Under the pieces are notes generated by a model. It had not been told where the DNA came from. It was given only the letters and a program-made list of their open reading frames with translations, and made no database searches. The position numbers and the translations under genes are program-made. From an uncultured Candidatus Peribacteria bacterium (lineage in GTDB: Bacteria; Patescibacteriota; Gracilibacteria; Peribacterales; Peribacteraceae): a stretch of DNA of 64,000 nt. Numbering within the stretch: position 1 is the first letter of the stretch; every line of letters begins with the position of its first letter. Positions 27,030 through 40,699 of this stretch are shown in pieces. The stretch spans positions 2,116-66,115 of the forward strand of contig CAZKOO010000004.1 of the NCBI GenBank assembly GCA_964554435.1, given 5' to 3'.

Positions 27030-27662
27030 TTAACCTGCTATCATCGCAAGAACCTTCGGGTACCACTCTTTTTCGAGTTCTTGCACCTTTTTCTGTAGTG
27101 TTTCCACTGTCTCATCTTCATCAATTGAACACTTTTTTTGTACAATAATTTCCCCTGTATCCACTCCTTCATCCATAAAATGGATGGTAACTCCAGATTC
27201 TTTTTCACCTGTCGCAAGCACTGCCTCATGCACATGGTGACCATACATCCCCTTTCCGCCAAATTTTGGAAGAAGTGCAGGGTGCACATTGATGATCTGT
27301 TTTGCCCATTTTTTGGTAAACCATGGAGAGAAGATCCACATCCAACCCATGCACGCGATAGAAAAGTTGATAGTTGATAGTTGATAGTTGATAGTTCCCC
27401 TCTCCTCGCGGGGAGAGGGGTTAGGGGTGAGGGCATGAATGGCACTATCAATTCTATGATCGTAGCTTTCACGATCTTCATCCTTCTGTTTTTCTACCAC
27501 GATGTAGGGCACATTGTGTGCTTTTGCTTTTTCAATACATCCACGATCGGCGCGATCGGTCACGAGACCAAGGCATGGATTGTTGAGTGTGCCGTTTTGA
27601 ATAGCATGTAGCGTTGCTTCGAATGTTGTACCGCGGGAAGAAGAGAGGACGATGAAGGACAT
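27030..27662 (-). CDS. purN: Phosphoribosylglycinamide formyltransferase
   Basis: 210 aa from MSFIVLSSSRGTTFEA, with INVHPALLPKFGG and GVTIHFMDEGVDTGEII motifs. Carries a repeat insertion. Confidence 0.85.
   Translation of the reverse strand: MSFIVLSSSRGTTFEATLHAIQNGTLNNPCLGLVTDRADRGCIEKAKAHNVPYIVVEKQKDEDRESYDHRIDSAIHALTPNPSPREERGTINYQLSTINFSIACMGWMWIFSPWFTKKWAKQIINVHPALLPKFGGKGMYGHHVHEAVLATGEKESGVTIHFMDEGVDTGEIIVQKKCSIDEDETVETLQKKVQELEKEWYPKVLAMIAG
27366..27434 (-). repeat. Composite element: 4x GTTGATA + GC hairpin + GGTTAGGGGTGAGGGC, inside purN
   Basis: Read in-frame as ALTPNPSPREERGTINYQLSTINFS. A sister copy lies at 28793-28858. Confidence 0.85.
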
Positions 27663-28132: not shown

Positions 28133-29278
28133 TTATAATTGCATCAAGAATTCATCAAACAAATATGCTGCATCTTCTGGCCCTGGTGTTGCTTCGGGGT
28201 GAAATTGAACCGAGAAAAATTTACCAGATTCGTGACGAATGCCTTCCACTGTTCCATCGTTCGCGTTTGTAAACCACACACTCCAACCCTGAGGTAATGT
28301 GGATGCATCCACAGCAAAGCCATGATTTTGCGATGTAATGATGCAACGATCGGTTGCCTTTCCATCTTTCCATTCAATGCATGGCTGATTCAATCCACGA
28401 TGACCATATTTGAGCTTGTACGTATCTCCACCAATCGCAAGCGAGAGAAGCTGATTGCCAAGACAGATGCCGAAGGTTGGAATGTTCTGTTCAATTGCCC
28501 ATTTAATCTGAGTAATTGTTTCGGTGCACTTTTTTGGATCTCCTGGCCCATTGCTGATGAAGAGACCATCGTACTGTAATGATGAATTCTTGAGATCATA
28601 GTTCCATGGAACACGATGCACACGAACGCCTCGAGAAAGCCACGAACGAAGAATGCCACGCTTAATACCACAGTCGTAGACAACCAGTGTTTTTGGCTCG
28701 AGTCCTTCTTCCTTCTTCTCTGGCTCGTAGGTCACAACATCGGTACATGACACCTCCGCAACGAGATTGAGATTGTTCGGATCTAGAAAAGAGTTGGTAG
28801 TTGGTAGTTGGTAGTTGGTAGTTCCCTCTTCCTCTGGGGAGAGGGTCGGGGTGAGGGCACACATTCTCCCCAGCATCACTCCATGTTCACGGAGTTTTTG
28901 CGTGAGAGCTCGAGTGTCGATGCCGGAAATGCCTGGAATGTTGTGATGAACCATCCACTCATGTAGAGAGCTGACGGCCTTATGATGACTAAACTCACGC
29001 ACTTCTGAACTCACGATAATACCACGGACTTGAACAGCCTCACTCTCAAAATTTTTACTAAACCCATACTCATTCTTCTCTTCGCTAGGAACGCCATAGT
29101 TCCCAACAAGAGGATAGGTAAACACGAGTATCTGTCCACGAAAACTTGGATCGGTCATGGAGTCGGGGTACCCAACCATGCCCGTTGAAAACACTACTTC
29201 GCCATCTGTATCAATAGGCGCACCAAAAGACTCACCTTCGAATACTGTTCCGTCGGAAAGAAGAAGAGAAGCTGACAT
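28133..29278 (-). CDS. carA: Carbamoyl-phosphate synthase small (glutaminase) subunit
   Basis: 381 aa with a CPSase small N-domain and a GATase triad context (ICLGNQLL, HGFAV, FSVQFHPEA). Carries a repeat insertion in the interdomain linker. Confidence 0.9.
   Translation of the reverse strand: MSASLLLSDGTVFEGESFGAPIDTDGEVVFSTGMVGYPDSMTDPSFRGQILVFTYPLVGNYGVPSEEKNEYGFSKNFESEAVQVRGIIVSSEVREFSHHKAVSSLHEWMVHHNIPGISGIDTRALTQKLREHGVMLGRMCALTPTLSPEEEGTTNYQLPTTNSFLDPNNLNLVAEVSCTDVVTYEPEKKEEGLEPKTLVVYDCGIKRGILRSWLSRGVRVHRVPWNYDLKNSSLQYDGLFISNGPGDPKKCTETITQIKWAIEQNIPTFGICLGNQLLSLAIGGDTYKLKYGHRGLNQPCIEWKDGKATDRCIITSQNHGFAVDASTLPQGWSVWFTNANDGTVEGIRHESGKFFSVQFHPEATPGPEDAAYLFDEFLMQL
28793..28858 (-). repeat. 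Composite element: 4x GTTGGTA + GC hairpin + GGTCGGGGTGAGGGC, inside carA
   Basis: Read in-frame as ALTPTLSPEEEGTTNYQLPTTNS. Same architecture, orientation and frame as the purN copy. Confidence 0.85.
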
Positions 29279-30846: not shown

Positions 30847-30930
30847 GACTTTGCAACGAGACATGTTTTCGTTGCACAATACCCCCCAATCTACTTTTCA
30901 TGAAGGAGTTGTAGAGCGGGGGGATTTTTT

Positions 30931-33387
30931 TTATTGTCTATATTCCTCTAAATTCATTTTCAACGTCGAAAGATTTTTCGTACCATTAATACTTGGTAAA
31001 GCATTAAATGCTTTTATGAATTCAGCGATTAAGAAATTGATGGAATTTTGCGCATCTTTTAGTGGTGTTTTTAGGAAAGAAATCACCTTCATTGTTGGTT
31101 TTAGTGGTGCCCACTCGTCTGCTTCAAAGCCAAATTCAATGAGATCTTTTTTACGAACTGGTTTTTTCAAACTTGGAGTGAATTGCAATGCGTTAAGAGC
31201 ATCAACCATCTTCCTCTCACACATCTTCGTTAACACTTTCTCCAGCGCAACCTTGCCCGAGGAACAGGCGAGGAATTCTTTGAAGGAAAGATACATTGGC
31301 TCAACTCCTTCAAGTCTCATTTCCACACGATCACTCTTATCCTTATCAACTCTCTCAACCCTCATAGAAATAGCCTCTCCATGATAATTCGTCTCTGCTT
31401 CAAGCTCTCGCTTGAGTGTGAAGAATTTTGCATTCTCGGCATCGATGACATCTTGCGTTCGTTTTGGTGTTTTCAGTGCAAGCTTTTTCTGCACATAGGT
31501 CATGAGCTTATCGGAGCTTTCAGTAATGCCTTGTTTCGTAAGCAAGCGCTGACCCTCAAGCATCATTTCTACAAACATTGCATGTGCATTTGTCCATTCA
31601 AGAACACCATCACCATTCACATCATACTGCACAGGTGTATCTGGCAAATTGTTATAGGTACAATCATTCCGACGACGTTCTGCCTCGATAAACGGTACCA
31701 TCTCTCTATACTTCGGGTCGTGATCGAATGCGAGGGAGTAGTAGATAAAACCAAGCCCTTCCCCTGCGCTGAGCATGTTCTCTGTCACAGGGCCCGCAAA
31801 CCCCAATTTTTTTGCTTGTGCTTCAGGGATTGTTGTCTGGCTTTGGGTAAAGAATTGATCGATGGCACGAGGGTCATAGCCCATGCGCTCAAGCATCGGT
31901 CGTGCTTGCTCTTTAAACTCTTTTGTATAATGCAATACCACGCGTCCATCACTCAAAATAGTGGTATAGCGTGCAAGATCACCCAATTTCATTTCAGAGA
32001 GCAGAGAAAAAGCGATGGTCGTGCAATGACAACGGTTGCGTGCTTCTTCTGTTAAGAACTGCTCCATCAAGTCCATGCGCGCAGCTGTTTCTTCAGGTGT
32101 CAATTTCTTGTCTGCAAACTTGATGCCAAGAAGGCGCTCAGTTGGCCCTTGCACGACATCTGTTGCTTTTTGTACAACGCCCCGCGCAAGTGGTGCCCAA
32201 ATTTCATTGAGTGGATCTTCCTGTTTCAGTAAAAACTTCTGGCCAAAATACATCACACCAAGCGTTGCAAACATCTTTGGCATTTTATGGAGCAAAAAAC
32301 CTCCTATGGCAAGCAGTGCTATTTTCTCTGCGCCACCCAAATTGCTAAATGTCTCTCCCAGCGTTTCGCTGTCTCTTTCGCGTGACAACTTATCTACTTT
32401 TGTGAGCTTTCCAAGCTCCTGACGATCGGAAAGCAGAGCAAGTTCACGGTCCATCTTCTTCTGACTGAGGGTATATTCCACTTCTTTGTGCACAGTAGGG
32501 TCCACAATACCCATCAGTGGGTTGAGCACTCCATTGAGAAGTGATGGTTCAAGGGTAGAGCGAAGTGACTGAATAGAGGGCATCATGGCAAAGCCTTTCG
32601 TGTGATCGGCAAGATCTTCATAAAACCCTGCATTCATCTTCCTAGCACTTCTAAGATCTCTATTGCCATACTGTGCCCTCAGTGCCGCTTTTGCAAGAAG
32701 GAATGCAGGTTCAGGAGGAGTGTTTGTTGGGTCAGGATTTTTCTCACCAAGCATGTACTGCAGAGCGATCAGCACATCTTTTTTATTCTCTAGAATTTTT
32801 TCTTTTGTAGAGATCATGTCTGTTTCTGGTCCACTCGCAATAATCAATTGTTGTGGAATGATAGTTCGCACAAAATCCACAAAAATTTGTTTGCGGGCTT
32901 CTGGAGTCTGTCCTGCAAGTAAGCCTTCTGGACCATTTTCCAATGTAAAGCCAATTGATGGATCGGGATTTCTTGGAAAAGTTCCGCGCTCAAAGTATTG
33001 AATCCACTTTCCAAGATTGAACAGTTCTGCACTTTTTTCAAATGATGGTCTTGCTCCTTCTCTGTACCCTTTTTCGATCAACTGCTGAATGCTTGCGGGC
33101 ATCACTTTTGTAAACTCTACGGCAGTGCGCAATTGCTTCTGCTTCAGTGCTTCCGAGCGTCCATCTGCCTCGTACGTTTCTATCCATCCTTTTACGAAAG
33201 AATCATTGAGTCCGCCAAGCACTCCCCGTCCGGCAACCAAGCCTGTGTGAATACCATTTTTTGCTAGCCACCCCGATGCGTACGATAGCCCATACGTGAC
33301 GTTTTCTGTAATACCTTTATTCTCATATATCTCCCTCGCCTCACGCGTGCTATAAGCTTGCCGATGAAGGGAAGAATGAAAAAACAT
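30931..33387 (-). CDS. Hypothetical large protein (818 aa)
   Basis: Long uninterrupted ORF with ordinary codon texture. Its start overlaps the upstream stop (TAATG). No known domain recognised. Confidence 0.6.
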   Translation of the reverse strand: MFFHSSLHRQAYSTREAREIYENKGITENVTYGLSYASGWLAKNGIHTGLVAGRGVLGGLNDSFVKGWIETYEADGRSEALKQKQLRTAVEFTKVMPASIQQLIEKGYREGARPSFEKSAELFNLGKWIQYFERGTFPRNPDPSIGFTLENGPEGLLAGQTPEARKQIFVDFVRTIIPQQLIIASGPETDMISTKEKILENKKDVLIALQYMLGEKNPDPTNTPPEPAFLLAKAALRAQYGNRDLRSARKMNAGFYEDLADHTKGFAMMPSIQSLRSTLEPSLLNGVLNPLMGIVDPTVHKEVEYTLSQKKMDRELALLSDRQELGKLTKVDKLSRERDSETLGETFSNLGGAEKIALLAIGGFLLHKMPKMFATLGVMYFGQKFLLKQEDPLNEIWAPLARGVVQKATDVVQGPTERLLGIKFADKKLTPEETAARMDLMEQFLTEEARNRCHCTTIAFSLLSEMKLGDLARYTTILSDGRVVLHYTKEFKEQARPMLERMGYDPRAIDQFFTQSQTTIPEAQAKKLGFAGPVTENMLSAGEGLGFIYYSLAFDHDPKYREMVPFIEAERRRNDCTYNNLPDTPVQYDVNGDGVLEWTNAHAMFVEMMLEGQRLLTKQGITESSDKLMTYVQKKLALKTPKRTQDVIDAENAKFFTLKRELEAETNYHGEAISMRVERVDKDKSDRVEMRLEGVEPMYLSFKEFLACSSGKVALEKVLTKMCERKMVDALNALQFTPSLKKPVRKKDLIEFGFEADEWAPLKPTMKVISFLKTPLKDAQNSINFLIAEFIKAFNALPSINGTKNLSTLKMNLEEYRQ

Positions 33388-33767
33388 TAGGAATTGGAAG
33401 ATTGAGTACTATGAAATGCAGTATACTCTTTTTCTGCAGATGCAAGAATTTCGTTTCGTGCGCTGGCGAGCGCACCTGCAACACACGTTGTAACCTCAGG
33501 GTTTTGAGTAGTATCCATGTACTTCTCGCACCAGAGAACAATCTGTTCGATGTCACTGCCGTACACTGCCTCGTGCCACTCGCTATAAGCACTGCCCCCT
33601 AGCCTCAGAGCAATTTCTTGACAACAAATCTGCATTGTCTTCGTTGCAAGATATTCCAAGAAATCCCCATCATTCTCGTGTGAAAAAATGGGAAGTTCAG
33701 CAGCTGCTTCACCAACAATTTTGCTGATTTCTGCAGTGAGCGCCTGTGGGGAGAAGAGAGAGTCCAT
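33387..33767 (-). CDS. Hypothetical protein (126 aa)
   Basis: ORF translationally coupled to the 818-aa gene. Confidence 0.5.
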   Translation of the reverse strand: MDSLFSPQALTAEISKIVGEAAAELPIFSHENDGDFLEYLATKTMQICCQEIALRLGGSAYSEWHEAVYGSDIEQIVLWCEKYMDTTQNPEVTTCVAGALASARNEILASAEKEYTAFHSTQSSNS

Positions 33768-33873
33768 GTGTTAGGTATTAGGTGTTAGGTATTAGGGGTT
33801 AGGTATTAGGGGTTAGGGGAGAGGGGTTAGGCCTGCCCGCCGAAGTCCGAAGGACGTAGGAGGGGGTGAGGGC
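33768..33873. repeat. Intergenic composite element (heptamer array + GC element)
   Basis: GTGTTAGGTATTAGGTGTTAGGTATTAGGGGTTAGGTATTAGGGGTTAGGGGAGAGGGGTTAGGCCTGCCCGCCGAAG...GGGGGTGAGGGC. Confidence 0.8.
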
Positions 33874-33883
33874 GGAGGAAGAA

Positions 33884-36800
33884 CTATGCATTCACAAGAT
33901 AGTATGCTCCTACTCCGAGCGGTCCTGCGAGGGCAAAGCACGCCGCAAGAGCAAGGGCTGTTTTCTTATGCGTATTGGCAAATTCTGCTGTCTTTTTTGT
34001 TGCTTTCAATGCATTGCTACCAGACCAGAGTGTTGCCGTGCTTACTCCTGCCCACGTTGCTTTGAGCGCTCGCTTTCCTCGAGTAGTGACGGATTTTTTC
34101 TCTTTCATATCCAAATGATCGAGAATGCGGTTGATGCGTGGTTGGTACTTTTCAGGCGCAGAACCAAGGAGGAAGTCCTCCGTTGCACGTACAATTTTTT
34201 CGTGAGTGTTTCCAAGCTCCTTTCGTTCTTCATCAATCAGATTATAACTTAATTCCTTCGACATCTTTTCTGCGTGCTTCTGTGTCAGTACTTTCGCAAT
34301 GATCTTCATTTCATCACGAATGCGCTTGGAGTCTTTCAAATTTTTTGTATACTCAGGACCCGTTCCTTCGTAAAGTTCTTTGAAGGTAAAGTACGCCGTC
34401 ACAAGGTTAGGGTAACTCGCGCGTTGCCATTGAATGCGACGATCATCGATAGGATCATCTAAAACATTACCCTGCTGAAGACGAGTAAAGCCTGTTGGGA
34501 CTTTTAACATACTTGCCACTCTATTCACTGCATTATGTTCTCTTTCTCTTTGTAAAATATTTGCCTTATCTATAAACCATTCTTCTACTGCCTCCAATCC
34601 TCCCTGTGGCGTACTATCCTCAAGATCATCTGAGAAGATGTTGCCTGACAAGGTGCCTAGAGTTCTATCGAGCTCAGCACTAATGTATCCTTGTGCAAGA
34701 AGTTGCTTCGCACACTTTTCCGATTCCTTTTGCGACAAACCTTGTAACTTAAAATGCTCTGTTGCAATGCGCAGTTGAAGTGCATCTCCAGAGTCTCCTC
34801 CTTTTTCAATCACTTGAAGCTCTGCCTCTTTCTTTTTGATCTTCTCCGTCAATTGATCATCACTTTCCAGCGCAAATTCTTTCTCAAGTTTTTCTGCTAT
34901 CTGTATAGGTGTTTCTTCTGATGTTAATTTTGATGGATCAACTTTATTACCATCAATATAAGCGCTCATCTTCTCTTCCAATTTTGCTTTTTGTGATTCA
35001 ATAAAAATTCGTATCAATATATCAGATGTCTTATCATATTTTGCAATTTCATCACTTACCAATTTTAATTGTCCTGTAATTTTATTTTGTGCATCACGTC
35101 TTTCGGAATCTTTATTCACTCCTGGAGTATTGGGGCCAGTTAAATCTACTGGCGAATTTGGCAAAACACTGCCTTGAATCGCAAAATTACTACTCCAACT
35201 TGTTGCTCTTGTTGTAAAGCCAATTGATTGCAAATCTGTGCGAAGCGCATCTCGTTCTTTTTGCAAGACATCTAGACCCTCTTTCATTGAAGGGCTAAAC
35301 GTTAATTCTCGTAATTTTGAGAGTAATAGCGCAAGATTCTTCTTTGCTTTTAGTCCCACCACTTCTTCCTTTAACTTTTTCGCATCCCCTCCACCTTGCA
35401 CCCTTGCCATGATGCTTGGGTTTTGGAGCGCCAAATGCGCTGCAATATTCGCACCAGTTGTGTTGACACTTCCTTCTTTAAGCTTTTCAACAAATGCCAT
35501 ACTCTCCTCATGCTCTCTTCGGACTTCTTTATGAAGGCCTAAAAGAGAAGTCGTATTTTGACCTATAATATCTCCAGATACTAAAGCGGTATTTCTAGCA
35601 ACACCTCGTATCACTGCATTTAATTGTAAGGCTGCACGATTTGCAAAGTCATCGGTATTAGGGGGGTATGGAGATGTTGTTGTGGGTGCTGTTATTCCAT
35701 GTGGTAAATCCATGGGATTTTTTGTTCCGGCGTCAACATACTTCTTCCAAAATGGGAAATCTCCAGTCACTCCACGGTGGCGCAATAAATCTCGCAATTC
35801 ACTATATGTCAACCCCGCCACTGGTCTATTTTGCAACCCTACTGGTGCATCTGGCCCAGTATTTGCAGCAAGTAGTTCATCAGATTTAATCTTGAGTTCT
35901 ACTTCGCCTGTGAGCGTGACAGTTTCTTTGGTATTTTTCCATTGATACCAATAAGCAGACAATCTTTGTATGACTATTTGTCCATATGGATTATCATTCC
36001 TATCTGTTTCATATGGAGAAGATGTGGTATTTACTAAAATTCTCCAATATGGAAAAGATTGATCAGGTCGAGATGGGCTTGGATTTTCTATTTGAATAAC
36101 TCGATTTAAATCATTCATTGCTAATTCTGCTATTTTTTTACCACGTAAATCCTCTGGAATAAATGCATCATTTCCAATTTTTGTAGATAAAAATAATTTT
36201 GGATTGATTGAATATCTTACGCCATTTAAACTGCAACGATTTACTCTCCAAATTTGAGATTCTTTGATTACCTTTGCTGCTACAATTTCAGAAAGCCTTC
36301 TTGTGCCTGTAGAATCTAATTGATTTGGTCCTTGTCTTGGGTTTCCAGATTTTACAAAACTTTCCCAATATGTATGTCGACCATTTGCAGGGTCTACATA
36401 TTGAAATAATCTTTCAAGTTCTGGTTCTGTTAATTGTGAAATAGGATAATTATTCGGATATGGTGTTAATCCAATATGAGCAAGTGCATTTGGCCCCATG
36501 GTTGCATTCATCATCGCCTCAATGTCCACCTCCAGCTCCACCTGCCGTGTATCTGCAGGCACTCGTTCAGTTAAGACTCCGCGCTTGGGGGGAATGGAAA
36601 TAGTAGAAAAAGATGCATTAGCTATAATATCTGCAGTCGTTTGCTGTATTGGTCTATCTAATGATATAGATGGATGAATAAATACAATTCCAATATTACT
36701 AAGTGTAGTATTTCTTAATGCTGCAGATAAATCAGTGGGATCTCGATAATCTTGTCCTTTCCAAAATGGATGATCTAGATCAAAATGAATATTGTAAGCT

Positions 36801-37366
36801 GTCCCATTAATGTTTGGAAAATTTATCTGAACGATATTAATCATATTATTTCCTTCAATTATCCTTGGCTTTGTCGGAATTCTTAGGCGCAAATACTGAT
36901 CCATAATATCCTCCGGAATTGCCTTAAATACCGCATCAACAAAAGCAGTAATTCTATTATTTCTATTTAAAGAAGGATTTCCAGTATTCAATGCATTTGC
37001 CCGATAATCTCCATCTGTTAATTGCTCCAATCTACTTTGTATTTCTTCATTCAGTACATTATGTAATTCCAGATTTTGCATTGATGCTCTTGTTTGATCA
37101 ACTACTGAAAAAATTTTATCAACAATTACACCACTGTCTAATGTGTCAAAATTAAATGGTCCAAAACACTCTTGAAAAAATCGCTTTTTTGCATTCAGCG
37201 CTTGACTTTGCACGGCAGAACTCTCCTCCTGATCAGTCAGTTCAAAGTGGTTACTTCCAAGGCCGGAATTGGTATTTGGTGAGTACAAGATATTGGTATG
37301 AAATCTCCATATTGTACCACAAAAGACATCAGAAAAAAAGTGGAAATGGTGTAAATTTCTTGACAC
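33884..37366 (-). CDS. Hypothetical giant tail-anchored protein (1160 aa)
   Basis: Long ORF with a C-terminal TM (ALALAACFALAGPLGVGAYYLV) and coiled-coil-like Lys/Glu-rich stretches. No known domain recognised. Confidence 0.6.
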   Translation of the reverse strand: MSRNLHHFHFFSDVFCGTIWRFHTNILYSPNTNSGLGSNHFELTDQEESSAVQSQALNAKKRFFQECFGPFNFDTLDSGVIVDKIFSVVDQTRASMQNLELHNVLNEEIQSRLEQLTDGDYRANALNTGNPSLNRNNRITAFVDAVFKAIPEDIMDQYLRLRIPTKPRIIEGNNMINIVQINFPNINGTAYNIHFDLDHPFWKGQDYRDPTDLSAALRNTTLSNIGIVFIHPSISLDRPIQQTTADIIANASFSTISIPPKRGVLTERVPADTRQVELEVDIEAMMNATMGPNALAHIGLTPYPNNYPISQLTEPELERLFQYVDPANGRHTYWESFVKSGNPRQGPNQLDSTGTRRLSEIVAAKVIKESQIWRVNRCSLNGVRYSINPKLFLSTKIGNDAFIPEDLRGKKIAELAMNDLNRVIQIENPSPSRPDQSFPYWRILVNTTSSPYETDRNDNPYGQIVIQRLSAYWYQWKNTKETVTLTGEVELKIKSDELLAANTGPDAPVGLQNRPVAGLTYSELRDLLRHRGVTGDFPFWKKYVDAGTKNPMDLPHGITAPTTTSPYPPNTDDFANRAALQLNAVIRGVARNTALVSGDIIGQNTTSLLGLHKEVRREHEESMAFVEKLKEGSVNTTGANIAAHLALQNPSIMARVQGGGDAKKLKEEVVGLKAKKNLALLLSKLRELTFSPSMKEGLDVLQKERDALRTDLQSIGFTTRATSWSSNFAIQGSVLPNSPVDLTGPNTPGVNKDSERRDAQNKITGQLKLVSDEIAKYDKTSDILIRIFIESQKAKLEEKMSAYIDGNKVDPSKLTSEETPIQIAEKLEKEFALESDDQLTEKIKKKEAELQVIEKGGDSGDALQLRIATEHFKLQGLSQKESEKCAKQLLAQGYISAELDRTLGTLSGNIFSDDLEDSTPQGGLEAVEEWFIDKANILQREREHNAVNRVASMLKVPTGFTRLQQGNVLDDPIDDRRIQWQRASYPNLVTAYFTFKELYEGTGPEYTKNLKDSKRIRDEMKIIAKVLTQKHAEKMSKELSYNLIDEERKELGNTHEKIVRATEDFLLGSAPEKYQPRINRILDHLDMKEKKSVTTRGKRALKATWAGVSTATLWSGSNALKATKKTAEFANTHKKTALALAACFALAGPLGVGAYYLVNA

Positions 37367-37398: not shown

Positions 37399-37704
37399 AT
37401 GAGCAATGCATCTTCTCCATCTTCGCATGATTTTCAGTATCTCATCGAACTCATGCACCAAATGATGGAAAAGCAAGACATCATGCAAGAGCAACTCGAT
37501 GATGTAAAAGATGAATTAGTGATCATCAATTCTCGTCTTGATTCCACAAATGCGCGTATTGATGGCGTTGAAATAAAAGCAGAGCTTCGTCATTGTGACC
37601 TGATGGATGCACTGAATGAGAAAGTGGAGTTACTGAAAGATACAACCATCAATCATGAGCATCGGATTGTACGCGTTGAGCATAAACTAGAGCTTGCAGT
37701 GTAA
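37399..37704 (+). CDS. Hypothetical small coiled-coil protein, twin 1
   Basis: 101 aa from ATG 37399. Shares a 94-bp near-identical core with twin 2. Confidence 0.55.
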   Translation: MSNASSPSSHDFQYLIELMHQMMEKQDIMQEQLDDVKDELVIINSRLDSTNARIDGVEIKAELRHCDLMDALNEKVELLKDTTINHEHRIVRVEHKLELAV

Positions 37705-37731
37705 TTCTCTTCATTTCTTTTTTTCACTCCT

Positions 37732-38010
37732 ATGAGTACCCACATTACCTCCGACGACTCTCAATACATTATTTCACTACTACATCAAGTCATTGAAAAA
37801 CAATCAGAGCATGATCAGAAATTTGAATCTATAGAAGATCAATTTGATACAGTGAATGCGCGTATTGATGGCGTTGAAATAAAAGCAGAGCTTCGTCATT
37901 GTGACCTGATGGATGCACTCAATGAGAAAGTGGAGTTACTGAAAGATAAGACTCAAAATCACGAGCATCGTATTACTCATATAGAGCATGCACTTGGTCT
38001 TGCTGTGTAA
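37732..38010 (+). CDS. Hypothetical small coiled-coil protein, twin 2
   Basis: 92 aa with the shared core NARIDGVEIKAELRHCDLMDALNEKVELLKD. Confidence 0.55.
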   Translation: MSTHITSDDSQYIISLLHQVIEKQSEHDQKFESIEDQFDTVNARIDGVEIKAELRHCDLMDALNEKVELLKDKTQNHEHRITHIEHALGLAV

Positions 38011-38014
38011 CACT

Positions 38015-38287
38015 CTACTTCTTTTCCTCTTTCTTCGGCTCTTCTTTCTTTGCTTCTACTTTTGGTTCTTCTTTTGGCTTTTCTGCTGATGGCTCTGGCT
38101 TCTTTGGTTCTGACGCTGGAGGTGTAGAAGCTCCTGATAGTAAGTCCTTCATTTTTCCACTACAGTGTGAAAGTATATTTCGCAAAAATTGAGCCATCCC
38201 TCCACCTTTTGGAAGATTTGCTACACCTTCTGTAAGAGATCCTTTCTGTCGTAGATCTGTAAGTTGTGACATTGAACAGTGTCCCAT
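38015..38287 (-). CDS. Hypothetical protein with Lys/Glu/Pro-rich tail
   Basis: 90-aa ORF with a low-complexity C-half. Weak support. Confidence 0.3.
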   Translation of the reverse strand: MGHCSMSQLTDLRQKGSLTEGVANLPKGGGMAQFLRNILSHCSGKMKDLLSGASTPPASEPKKPEPSAEKPKEEPKVEAKKEEPKKEEKK

Positions 38288-38355: not shown

Positions 38356-40542
38356 CTACAGCCATCTTTTTGAGATGAAGGAACCTGCAATTCCTGCAAG
38401 GAGAGATAGTGCAACAGATGATAGACCTCCTTTTCCTTCTCTCTGTTCTGGTTCTTGTGTCAGTTCAAGTGTTGGCGTGTGCTGCTCTGCAAGAAGATCT
38501 TTCCGATACATCTCCGTGTAATAGACTTGTTTTTTACTGGTTTTCTTTGCAACTTTCTTCTTTACCGCTTTTTTCGATGATACTTTTTTCTCTTTTTTCG
38601 ATCCGTCATCATTCTTTTTCTGCATGGATGTGTCTTCTCCAATCTTTTCTTTAGTCTCATTTTGTACTATTTCTTCCTCATCACTTTCTTGCCATATTCC
38701 AAGGCTTTTTTCTTGAGAATCCTTCTCTGCTTGTGTATACTCTGACCTTCTTTTGTATTCTTTCTTCTTTTCAGCTTCTAACAGACCAATACTGATCAAC
38801 TCTTTCGCACTATCTTTCATGGTAGAATTTGAAAGATATGCTTGTAATTTTCCTTCTTTTGACCACAATTCTGTATCAAATTGTAGTTCAACTTTTTGAT
38901 CTTTTAAAAGGGCTCGAATAGTTTCTACTACTTCACTATTTTCCTCTGAAAATAATGCTCCAATCATCTGAAGAGGAATTTGCTCTTCGTTAAAGTATTT
39001 CTGAGCTGAAAGATCTGGTTGAAACAGGAGTGTTCCGTCGTCAAAGACTTCTACAAGTGTTCCGGTTATTTCTCCATCTCTACAGTCAGCGGAGTAATAC
39101 CTTCTCCCCTCTTCTGCTTTCTCCCAATCAATCGTCGAGACAGAAGCATCGAGTGGTGACACCAGCGTGACATGGCCAATGCTATTTGGAAGACTGATCT
39201 TCATTTCGCTAGAAAACAATATCCGCTCTTCACTTGGTGCAAGATCTCCTGTGAGTGCATACGTCGATAGCGTCGTATTACCAATCTTGAGCTTCCAGCC
39301 ACTCAAATGTACTGTGTCCTCTCCTCTATTTTTAATGATGACGGATTCTTTTCCACTATCGACTGAGTCGGGGTTTGGTAGTGCGGAAACGAGGAATAGA
39401 TTTGCAAAGGGTGAAGGATACGTGATAGGCATGCCGTCCGAGAGTGAGGCCTGCTTTGATGAACTCAGGACAATCTCTTTTGTCAAAATAGATGTTCCAC
39501 AGCTATTCTTCGCCTCGAGCGTCACCTGCGTTGTACCAATCTGGACAAACGCATGCGGTGGTGGATTACAACTCTCACTTGTGTATCCATCGGAAAACGT
39601 CCAATGACATGTACTGTCGGAAATGGACCCTGTGATGGCAACCGCCTGAAAGTTGACAGTGGTTTTATCGATACCAGTGAGTTCTCCGTCTTGGATGATG
39701 ATGGAAAGATTGGGAAGGAAACATTCAGAGGTTATAGGTTCTAGGTGATAGGCACTAGAAGCAAATGATGATTCAGGGGAGACAGATGGAGAAGAATCAG
39801 AGGAAGCAGAGGAAGCAGAAGAGGCAAGGGATGAAGAGGAAGTAGAGGAAAGAGAGGATGTGATTGACGGAGAAGAGACAGATGATGCAGGCGATGATTG
39901 CATACTTGATGATAAGGAACTATCGACGAGCAGAGCGGCATTTCTTGCCGCGATGTCAGATGATACAACAGCAAATGATGACACCGAATTCTGCACACCA
40001 GGCGTTGCAAGAACATTTGCACCGCCATCCATGTTGATTATCTCAATTGCTGATGACCAGTTTGAGGCATCAATTCCTGAGCCAAGTGGATCGATGCGCT
40101 CCATGCTTGCCTTCACTCCACCACTAGGATTGAGCCCTGCAAACGGGTTCCCCACCGCATCATCCACAGTATCAATGAGCAAAGAAGATTGATCAAATAA
40201 TTTGATCAATAATTTTGTATTCGGAAGAGAAATACTTGTAGTGACGAGAAAAGGATCGATGGCAAGACGCGAAGAATGTTGATCTTTATTCGAAAGAATA
40301 ATGTACTCATTGGGCGCGATCACTGACCCACTGGGAAATGTCACCATCACGCTTTCTTGTCCTGTGCTTTTGAGTGAAGTGATGGTGTAGCCAGAAAGAT
40401 CAATTTCAACGTGATCGGGATTATAGAGCTCTATCCATTCATCAGCAGTACTCAGGTCACTCCCCATCCACATCACTTCATTAATCACAACGTGCGCAGA
40501 GCAGAGAGATGGTATCAGAAAGAGAAATGCTGAAAGCATCAT
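38356..40542 (-). CDS. Membrane-anchored lamin-tail-domain (x2) protein with SNase-like C-terminal domain
   Basis: Signal peptide MMLSAFLFLIPSLCSA. LTD motifs VVINEVMWMG...EWIELYNP...LSGYTI and ALPNPDSVDSGKESVIIKN...LSGWKL. An SNase-like block (LQAYL...ELISIGLLEA...SLGIWQ), a Ser-rich linker and a C-terminal TM. Confidence 0.7.
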   Translation of the reverse strand: MMLSAFLFLIPSLCSAHVVINEVMWMGSDLSTADEWIELYNPDHVEIDLSGYTITSLKSTGQESVMVTFPSGSVIAPNEYIILSNKDQHSSRLAIDPFLVTTSISLPNTKLLIKLFDQSSLLIDTVDDAVGNPFAGLNPSGGVKASMERIDPLGSGIDASNWSSAIEIINMDGGANVLATPGVQNSVSSFAVVSSDIAARNAALLVDSSLSSSMQSSPASSVSSPSITSSLSSTSSSSLASSASSASSDSSPSVSPESSFASSAYHLEPITSECFLPNLSIIIQDGELTGIDKTTVNFQAVAITGSISDSTCHWTFSDGYTSESCNPPPHAFVQIGTTQVTLEAKNSCGTSILTKEIVLSSSKQASLSDGMPITYPSPFANLFLVSALPNPDSVDSGKESVIIKNRGEDTVHLSGWKLKIGNTTLSTYALTGDLAPSEERILFSSEMKISLPNSIGHVTLVSPLDASVSTIDWEKAEEGRRYYSADCRDGEITGTLVEVFDDGTLLFQPDLSAQKYFNEEQIPLQMIGALFSEENSEVVETIRALLKDQKVELQFDTELWSKEGKLQAYLSNSTMKDSAKELISIGLLEAEKKKEYKRRSEYTQAEKDSQEKSLGIWQESDEEEIVQNETKEKIGEDTSMQKKNDDGSKKEKKVSSKKAVKKKVAKKTSKKQVYYTEMYRKDLLAEQHTPTLELTQEPEQREGKGGLSSVALSLLAGIAGSFISKRWL

Positions 40543-40699
40543 CCTTTTATTGAACACATTTTTTATACAATAAAGAGAGGAAAGATAGAGGTCTGAAAAC
40601 ATGCTTCCTAGCATGAGAGAAAAATCATCAATTGAAAGATCGGACAAGAAATTTCAAAACTGCATAGTCATTTTTTGCGCAGAAAAATCATCAATACTG

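Follow-up and report, generated by a model that had tools for sequence, protein, structure and literature searches.

We analysed a 64,000-nucleotide stretch of contig CAZKOO010000004.1 (hereafter the window) from an uncultured Candidatus Peribacteria bacterium, a member of the candidate phyla radiation (CPR), and focused on a run of three genes near its centre (genes 1, 2 and 3; Table 1). The host assembly comprises 979 kb (0.98 Mb) in 51 contigs and is rated 100% complete. Around the trio, Pfam identifies RNase Y, carA, a formyltransferase, an IVS-type four-helix gene, a Y1 transposase and a protein with LTD, PKD and SNase domains, a set of neighbours that fits an origin in Candidatus Peribacteria. 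A sequence-only reading had described the trio as three co-directional open reading frames (ORFs) forming an operon of giant proteins. All three genes are real, co-directional and single-copy in this genome, and they lie on the minus strand; 'giant' overstates proteins of 818–1160 aa.

Table 1. Genes and sequence features of the trio and its surroundings, in window coordinates
Feature	Position	Strand	Description
Gene 1	33884..37288	-	1134 aa; mostly helical; predicted C-terminal tail anchor; Peribacteraceae-specific family
Insertion in gene 1	35903..36598	-	P0004 residues 231–462; 232 residues; AT-rich
Gene 1 predicted tail anchor KTALALAACFALAGPLGVGAYYLVNA	33887..33964	-	From hydropathy; preceded by a Lys-rich stretch
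Gene 1–gene 2 spacer	33768..33883	-	116 nt; copy of the genome's dispersed composite element
Gene 2	33387..33767	-	126 aa; acidic; coupled to gene 3
Gene 3	30931..33387	-	818 aa; mostly helical; N-terminal tag region; central hydrophobic hairpin
Gene 3 tag region MFFHSSLHRQAYSTREAREIYEN	33319..33387	-	Decayed copy of the family's His-rich E-x-R-L-C tag
Gene 3 hairpin GAEK-IALLAIGGFLL-HKMPK-MFATLGVMYFG-QKFLLKQEDP	32212..32334	-	Residues 352–392
LTD-PKD-SNase surface nuclease	38356..40647	-	Signal peptide; C-terminal membrane anchor; Pfam LTD, PKD and SNase
Small Lys/Pro/Glu-tailed protein	38015..38287	-	90 aa; positional counterpart of the small proteins of relatives
Two paralogous small coiled-coil genes	37399..38010	+	Interlopers between the 90-aa gene and gene 1

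The trio is conserved within one bacterial family. We sampled 200 Peribacteraceae genomes from 84 genera, together with class-wide and phylum-wide samples of 301 genomes each. The gene 3 profile detected relatives in 83 of the 200 family genomes, representing 38 of the 84 genera, and the gene 1 profile in 54 genomes from 27 genera; as the proteins diverge so fast, profile sensitivity probably leads us to underestimate this distribution. A search of 1.84 billion representative proteins with the gene 3 profile gave 174 clusters, 116 of them below 1e-30. All 22 gene 3 matches in the class sample belonged to the same family, with none in the ~260 genomes of other families, and the search for gene 1 outside the family in the phylum sample yielded nothing significant, only one match of 18.5 bits, at chance level. 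The lineage specificity proposed earlier thus holds, in the samples searched, for a single family of Candidatus Peribacteria.

Gene order is conserved as well. In at least 23 genomes, gene 3 comes directly after gene 1 in the same orientation, and the 14 strong matches to the gene 2 profile in the family are all placed exactly between these two genes. At least 14 genomes, from about 11 genera, preserve the order gene 1–gene 2–gene 3 at only ~25% identity. In a second subclade (G122, G144, G009, G103, G138, G115 and G185), genes 1 and 3 lie 1–9 kb apart on opposite strands. Identity to relatives is ~76% for RNase Y and carA and 54–57% for the formyltransferase; the LTD protein is ~45–53% identical to its relatives, in the first LTD only. 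For genes 1–3 it is 22–35%.

Comparison of related loci indicated that a three-gene operon is too narrow a description. Of the first 12 related loci, 11 have an LTD homologue upstream of the trio and in the same orientation; L082, L083 and L098 have one upstream as well. This gene is usually followed by genes for small or disordered proteins, and beyond it lies a divergent RNase Y gene. The clearest example is L098, a 17.5-kb metagenome contig, which carries RNase Y (divergent), an LTD protein of 924 aa, a 99-aa protein, and genes 1, 2 and 3 encoding 915, 128 and 934 aa; the gaps from the LTD gene through to gene 3 are 13, 74, 6 and −4 nt, and past gene 3 the contig matches the gene order of the window, beginning with carA and the formyltransferase and extending to further neighbours. 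From this arrangement, the ancestral unit appears to be a string of five genes: the LTD nuclease, a small Lys-rich protein and genes 1, 2 and 3. Sequence similarity among the small proteins between the LTD gene and gene 1 was seen between two relatives only. The plus-strand gene pair that now separates the 90-aa gene from gene 1 is lacking at that place in L098, where the gap is 74 nt, and in other relatives; judged by its position, the pair is not part of the module and splits the ancestral string. One gene of the pair has weak PHROG matches (E ~1e-3) to families of unknown function. Other relatives have two more proteins between the LTD gene and gene 1, one of ~430–520 aa and one of 220–340 aa (X and Y), both of which this genome lacks.

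No relative of known function or fold was found for genes 1–3 in the searches made. None of the three had a match in Pfam, NCBIfam, PHROGs or PADLOC (Pfam E ≤ 1), and profile searches of the PDB with family alignments (14 sequences for gene 1, 8 and 40 for gene 3 and 7 for gene 2) returned nothing credible; those with gene 2 gave noise only (best E = 0.13). A hit to 'Cone-shaped protein SC1' (37sl; E = 0.003) was rejected as compositional, the entry being an Ala/Glu/Leu/Arg-rich and evidently designed helical protein. Foldseek searches of the gene 1 and gene 3 models against the PDB and of the gene 1 model against BFVD gave nothing below E = 0.09, the best value reached in the BFVD fold search, which was made with the gene 1 model only. 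Scanning IMG/VR viral contigs with the gene 3 alignment revealed no relative, and word-indexed protein searches returned almost solely the query. Genes 1 and 3 are also not paralogues of each other (hhalign probability 0.3%). The claim that these genes lack a recognisable domain therefore withstood profile, PDB-sequence and fold searches. Taken with the conservation of the unit across family genomes, this leaves the sequence-only reading standing on two points: homology searches assign no ordinary function to the trio, and its genes are co-conserved. Pfam searches covering 40 relatives of gene 3, the five of greatest length (up to 2214 aa) and 10 accessory proteins from related loci gave nothing useful, with one exception: in the subclade with facing genes, G009 carries between genes 1 and 3 a gene (L077 6241–7251) with a winged helix-turn-helix, a histidine-kinase-like ATPase domain (HATPase_c) and a STAS-like domain (DUF4325). 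This is the sole annotated domain set seen inside any version of the module.

Gene 1 has two candidate starts. The sequence-only reading used GTG 37366, which gives 1160 aa (33884–37366). The public gene call is 1134 aa long, that is, it starts at TTG 37288; in an alignment with 13 homologues the N-termini also align at this codon, and an extended −10 element (TGgTACAAT) lies just upstream of it and downstream of GTG 37366. On these three grounds, we place gene 1 at 33884–37288. An AlphaFold2 (AF2) model of its product is mostly helical with small beta elements (predicted local distance difference test, pLDDT, 60.7; predicted template modelling score, pTM, 0.48). The coiled-coil-like stretches noted earlier appear in this model as helical bundles, not as a single long coiled coil. 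The 232-residue insertion is specific to this genome, being absent from 13 of 13 aligned homologues, and pLDDT falls below 50 across residues 231–266 and 296–463. GC content at third codon positions (GC3) is 0.24 in the N-terminal part of gene 1, 0.21 in the insertion and 0.33 in the C-terminal half, compared with 0.41–0.42 in genes 2 and 3. Insertion included, the 5′ part of gene 1 is AT-richer than its 3′ half and than the other two genes, which explains and bears out the earlier remark on an AT-richer 5′ half.

Hydropathy analysis of gene 1 identified a single hydrophobic window, formed by the last 26 residues (P0001 residues 1135–1160) and preceded by lysines, in line with the C-terminal transmembrane segment proposed before. 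This anchor is kept in 9 of 13 homologues; a divergent subclade has lost it and carries a W-x-N-P-x-T-W-P motif instead. Gene 1 proteins of four loci (L025, L026, L027 and L032) have His-rich or (His-Gly)n tails past the anchor, and such a tail also occurs in an accessory protein of G010 (L026 5693–6721). Judging by composition, metal binding is conceivable for these tails and for the His-rich tag of gene 3 described below. In one relative, the syntenic copy of gene 1 on C26 is accompanied by an unlinked duplicate of the C-terminal two thirds of the gene (G168:C21:3805–5277).

The gene 3 product is likewise modelled as mostly helical with small beta elements (pLDDT 65, pTM 0.41). The central hydrophobic hairpin reported for it is present, each of its two segments being merely ~11–14 residues long. 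Across the family, the hairpin follows a defined pattern: G-x-E-K, 11–17 hydrophobic residues, a K/R-rich loop of 3–8 residues, and 11–13 hydrophobic residues ending in Y-F-G, followed by K-F-L-x-K-x-x-D-P. A hydrophobic segment at the N terminus was found in just 2 of 135 gene 3 relatives, and neither large protein of this genome has a signal peptide. Both contain 5 cysteines. In the two large families, the columns with no or almost no variation hold G, W, L, A, Y, F, K and R; within the body of either large protein, the family alignments show no Asp/His/Ser/Cys set that is conserved. Gene 3 relatives range from ~500 to 2214 aa in length. Some long ones (P0146, P0148 and P0114; 1692–2214 aa) have C-terminal extensions of more than 1000 residues without a Pfam domain, and many shorter ones have low-complexity tails rich in Pro, Ser, Thr, Gly and Ala. 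Past the gene 3 stop codon (30880–30930, minus strand), the sequence reads A7-TCCCCCC, ~28 nt and then GGGGGGTATT. This C6/G6 inverted repeat, which a consensus scan did not list, could, from its sequence, be the terminator of the unit.

Gene 2 encodes a strongly acidic protein (19 D/E versus 6 K/R) whose fold is probably helical and in which A21, P26 and W79 are invariant among seven orthologues. Its translational coupling to gene 3 through TAATG was verified on the sequence as a stop/start overlap; in L098, the corresponding overlap is ATGA. The spacer between genes 1 and 2 contains the composite repeat noted earlier, which consists of a GCCCTCACCCC head, a GC-rich piece and a CCCTAAC-type heptamer array (33770–33831; 8.9 copies according to Tandem Repeats Finder). 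The spacer measures 116 nt here and only 6 nt in relatives such as L098, indicating that the element is a secondary insertion. It was considered as a structured RNA or terminator, and an RNA fold z-score of 0 ruled this out. The GC-rich head, with which the spacer begins (33832–33883), is common to in-frame composite inserts in purN and carA (27356–27444 and 28783–28868). These three GCCCTCACCCC-headed elements all lie on the minus strand, each continuing into a heptamer array with a different unit.

The gene 3 family has a short N-terminal tag, present in at least 96 representatives. A sequence logo of 96 family members, in which E and R define the searched motif, reads E-x-R-L-C, with L in 95 and C in 80 members. 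The head of the tag is rich in His, aromatic residues and Arg, with S/L at −3 and R/K at −1, and the motif is followed by an aromatic or basic residue and then by a Pro/Gly/Ser-rich linker. Its position is nearly fixed, the tag Glu lying at residue 13–17 from the start in 82 of the 96 members. The tag lacks a hydrophobic core, a lipobox, a twin-arginine context and a Gly-Gly, and is therefore none of the known N-terminal signals; a lipoprotein, Tat or double-glycine leader was rejected on these features. In this genome, gene 3 reads S-T-R-E-A-R-E-I, so that the tag Leu and Cys are lost and the copy (E-A-R-E-I) scores below detection with the tag profile. Tags of the nearest relatives are intermediate, with R-L-I in G011 and L098 and R-L-C in G006. 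A 30-residue tag profile detected no other tagged ORF in this 0.98-Mb genome; larger relatives carry several tagged proteins. Homology of gene 2 to the small partners beside other tagged proteins could not be demonstrated, and the gene 2 family has no such paralogues.

Together, these data lead us to favour, tentatively and at somewhat less than an even chance, a model in which the trio is a vertically inherited, very fast-evolving module whose products form a non-enzymatic complex on the cell's own membrane, with most of their mass in the cytoplasm. Gene 1 would attach to this membrane by its C-terminal tail anchor and gene 3 by its short hydrophobic helical hairpin, the bulk of both proteins facing the cytoplasm. 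The small acidic gene 2 product would be a partner of gene 3 in stoichiometric amounts, its synthesis being tied to that of gene 3 by the TAATG overlap; it probably binds gene 3 and acts on the tag or the hairpin of that protein as escort or adaptor. The three proteins together may form a scaffold that underlies the envelope and perhaps organises the adjacent surface nuclease or a different envelope site. We infer the topology, the complex, the scaffold role and the link to the nuclease from the features described above. A cytoplasmic location of the bulk, unless an unknown export route exists, is suggested by the lack of signal peptides, by the lysines ahead of the anchor and by the low cysteine content, as extracellular and exported proteins of Peribacteria are described as cysteine-rich (PMC4736985). 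For the same three reasons, the cell-surface location proposed by the sequence-only reading is not supported. The lack of a catalytic-looking conserved set and of a P-loop or other domain points to a non-enzymatic role.

Several observations weigh against such a scaffold. The AF2 models of genes 1 and 3 are only moderately confident, and some genomes (G083 and G127) keep genes 1 and 3 without gene 2. The extreme divergence of genes 1–3 is more typical of exposed or conflict proteins, and many gene 3 relatives end in Pro/Ser/Thr/Gly-rich tails that resemble wall-spanning linkers. The hairpin segments are short, and the loop between them is strongly basic, with 146 K/R versus 8 D/E in total across the family. 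According to the positive-inside rule, a basic loop is expected on the inner side of the membrane. This would place the loop inside and both large domains of gene 3 outside, or else mean that the hairpin is not a true double span. Moreover, the tag also heads unrelated ORFs in the Peribacteraceae genomes G134, G001 and G083, as detected with the 30-residue profile, and a small acidic partner coupled upstream of a large protein is also the arrangement of secretion chaperone–substrate pairs.

The main rival to the scaffold takes up these points. In this explanation, which we consider unlikely but better placed than any other alternative, the tag is the address for a Sec-independent route of targeting or export in Peribacteria that has yet to be described; gene 2 would be the escort that keeps the gene 3 hairpin soluble, and gene 3, perhaps with gene 1, would be delivered to the cell surface or to the membrane of a partner cell, much as in pairs of a chaperone and a hairpin effector. 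The fixed distance of the tag from the start, the linker behind it and its presence on unrelated ORFs, including tagged ORFs near the locus in L028, L075 and L077, all speak for such a route. So do the coupled acidic partner, the basic hairpin loop, the very fast evolution, the linker-like tails of many relatives and the symbiotic lifestyle inferred for the lineage (PMC4736985). However, a machinery for such a tag is neither known nor was one found here, gene 1 has no such tag, and gene 2 is without paralogues beside other tagged proteins. No CesT, LXG or WXG100 match was obtained with Pfam. In addition, the three genes are intact in this genome although Leu and Cys of the tag are lost and no other ORF carries it.

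In a more specific and somewhat less likely form, E-x-R-L-C would be the address tag of a pathway found only in Peribacteria and serving several large, unrelated cargos, of which some have a small acidic escort; gene 3 would be a hairpin cargo and gene 1 its tail-anchored dock. If this were true, the cargo would insert by its hairpin into the cell's own envelope or into a partner-cell membrane, and the decayed tag in the smallest genome of this family would mark a lineage that is losing the pathway.

Another alternative, which the conserved linkage brings up and which we regard as improbable, starts from the nuclease. Here, the LTD/SNase ecto-nuclease would bind external DNA and cut it for capture or nucleotide scavenging, and genes 1–3, as its partner on the membrane side, would hold, regulate or inhibit it. 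The tight and conserved co-directional string with the LTD nuclease is consistent with this idea, as are the C-terminal anchors of both the nuclease and gene 1 and the strong acidity of gene 2, which could be a DNA-mimic inhibitor. A comparable case is known from Bacillus subtilis, where the nuclease NucA has a small inhibitor, Nin. Yet gene 2 is coupled to gene 3 and not to the nuclease, and neither Pfam nor NCBIfam reveals a DNA-binding or transport domain in genes 1–3. The string is broken here by two opposite-strand genes, and in one subclade genes 1 and 3 stand apart on opposite strands. Nucleotide synthesis, moreover, is within the capacity of Peribacteria themselves (PMC4736985), and carA and purN adjoin the locus. 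The case for scavenging is thus one of linkage.

Finally, the three genes might have no common function and merely occupy a fast-turnover slot between housekeeping genes, or be remnants of mobile elements or a prophage. In favour of this very improbable explanation, a REPtron, a GC-rich island and dispersed repeats share the interval from RNase Y to carA with the trio in this genome, and the 5′ part of gene 1 deviates in composition. The conserved order of the divergent trio across some 11 genera largely refutes it; each gene is present once and, judged by synteny, was inherited vertically. Synteny also rules out a prophage or mobile-element origin, together with PHROG (genes 1–3), viral-fold (gene 1 model) and viral-contig (gene 3 alignment) searches that gave no match.

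The module accounts for ~0.7% of the 0.98 Mb of this genome, changes at three times the rate of its neighbours, is kept across dozens of genera of one family and is genetically tied to a surface nuclease. A large part of bacterial diversity belongs to the CPR, whose lineage-specific genes are mostly without explanation. We regard the trio as a well-defined target and not as the discovery of a mechanism, its function being proposed from features of its genes. A positionally fixed tag common to unrelated proteins is a testable candidate for a new targeting signal. Should the module act at the envelope or in contact with a partner, it would offer a handle on the surface organisation of uncultured, probably symbiotic cells.

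The trio recalls several known systems in its layout. Like type III class I chaperone–effector pairs and the Inc proteins of chlamydiae, it has a small acidic protein of ~125 aa coupled just upstream of a large protein that lacks a signal peptide, and this large protein carries a recognition region at its N terminus and two hydrophobic segments at its centre. It differs from them in that no CesT/SycE-type, chaperone or effector sequence or fold match was found for the trio, and in being chromosomal, single-copy and vertically inherited. Whereas the bilobed domain of Inc proteins consists of two segments of ~20 aa, those of gene 3 measure about 11–14 aa and enclose a basic loop of ~5 residues. 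A type III apparatus has not been reported for Peribacteria, the secretion systems in the list of the genome paper being type II secretion and type IV pili only (PMC4736985). Type VIIb LXG proteins with their Lap/WXG100 partners are similar in pairing a small helical protein with large, helical, fast-evolving and N-terminally targeted ones. However, the trio shows no LXG or WXG100 match (Pfam E ≤ 1; PDB sequence and fold) and no toxin domain, its tag is a peptide of ~20 residues instead of a 200-residue helical domain, and the small partner is encoded between two large genes.

Other comparisons concern single features. With bacterial dynamin-like and mitofusin-type membrane-remodelling proteins, which are large and helical, have a hydrophobic paddle or hairpin and often occur as tandem genes, the module shares two large tandem helical proteins with short hydrophobic hairpin or anchor elements, but it has no GTPase domain or P-loop and no fold match (best Foldseek hit Mgm1, E = 3.2, TM-score 0.06). 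Phage proteins, for example tape-measure proteins, found no counterpart in PHROGs, in BFVD with the gene 1 model or in IMG/VR with the gene 3 alignment, and anti-phage defence systems none in PADLOC for genes 1–3. The LTD nuclease surface proteins of CPR and other bacteria are represented by the first gene of the ancestral cluster, whereas genes 1–3 themselves have no similarity to LTD or nuclease domains. Gene 1, finally, has the hallmarks of a tail-anchored protein, namely a single hydrophobic segment at the extreme C terminus and no signal peptide, and its membrane insertion is predicted on this basis; tail-anchored proteins are a topological class and not a family, so that this likeness carries no functional information, and one gene 1 subclade has lost the anchor.

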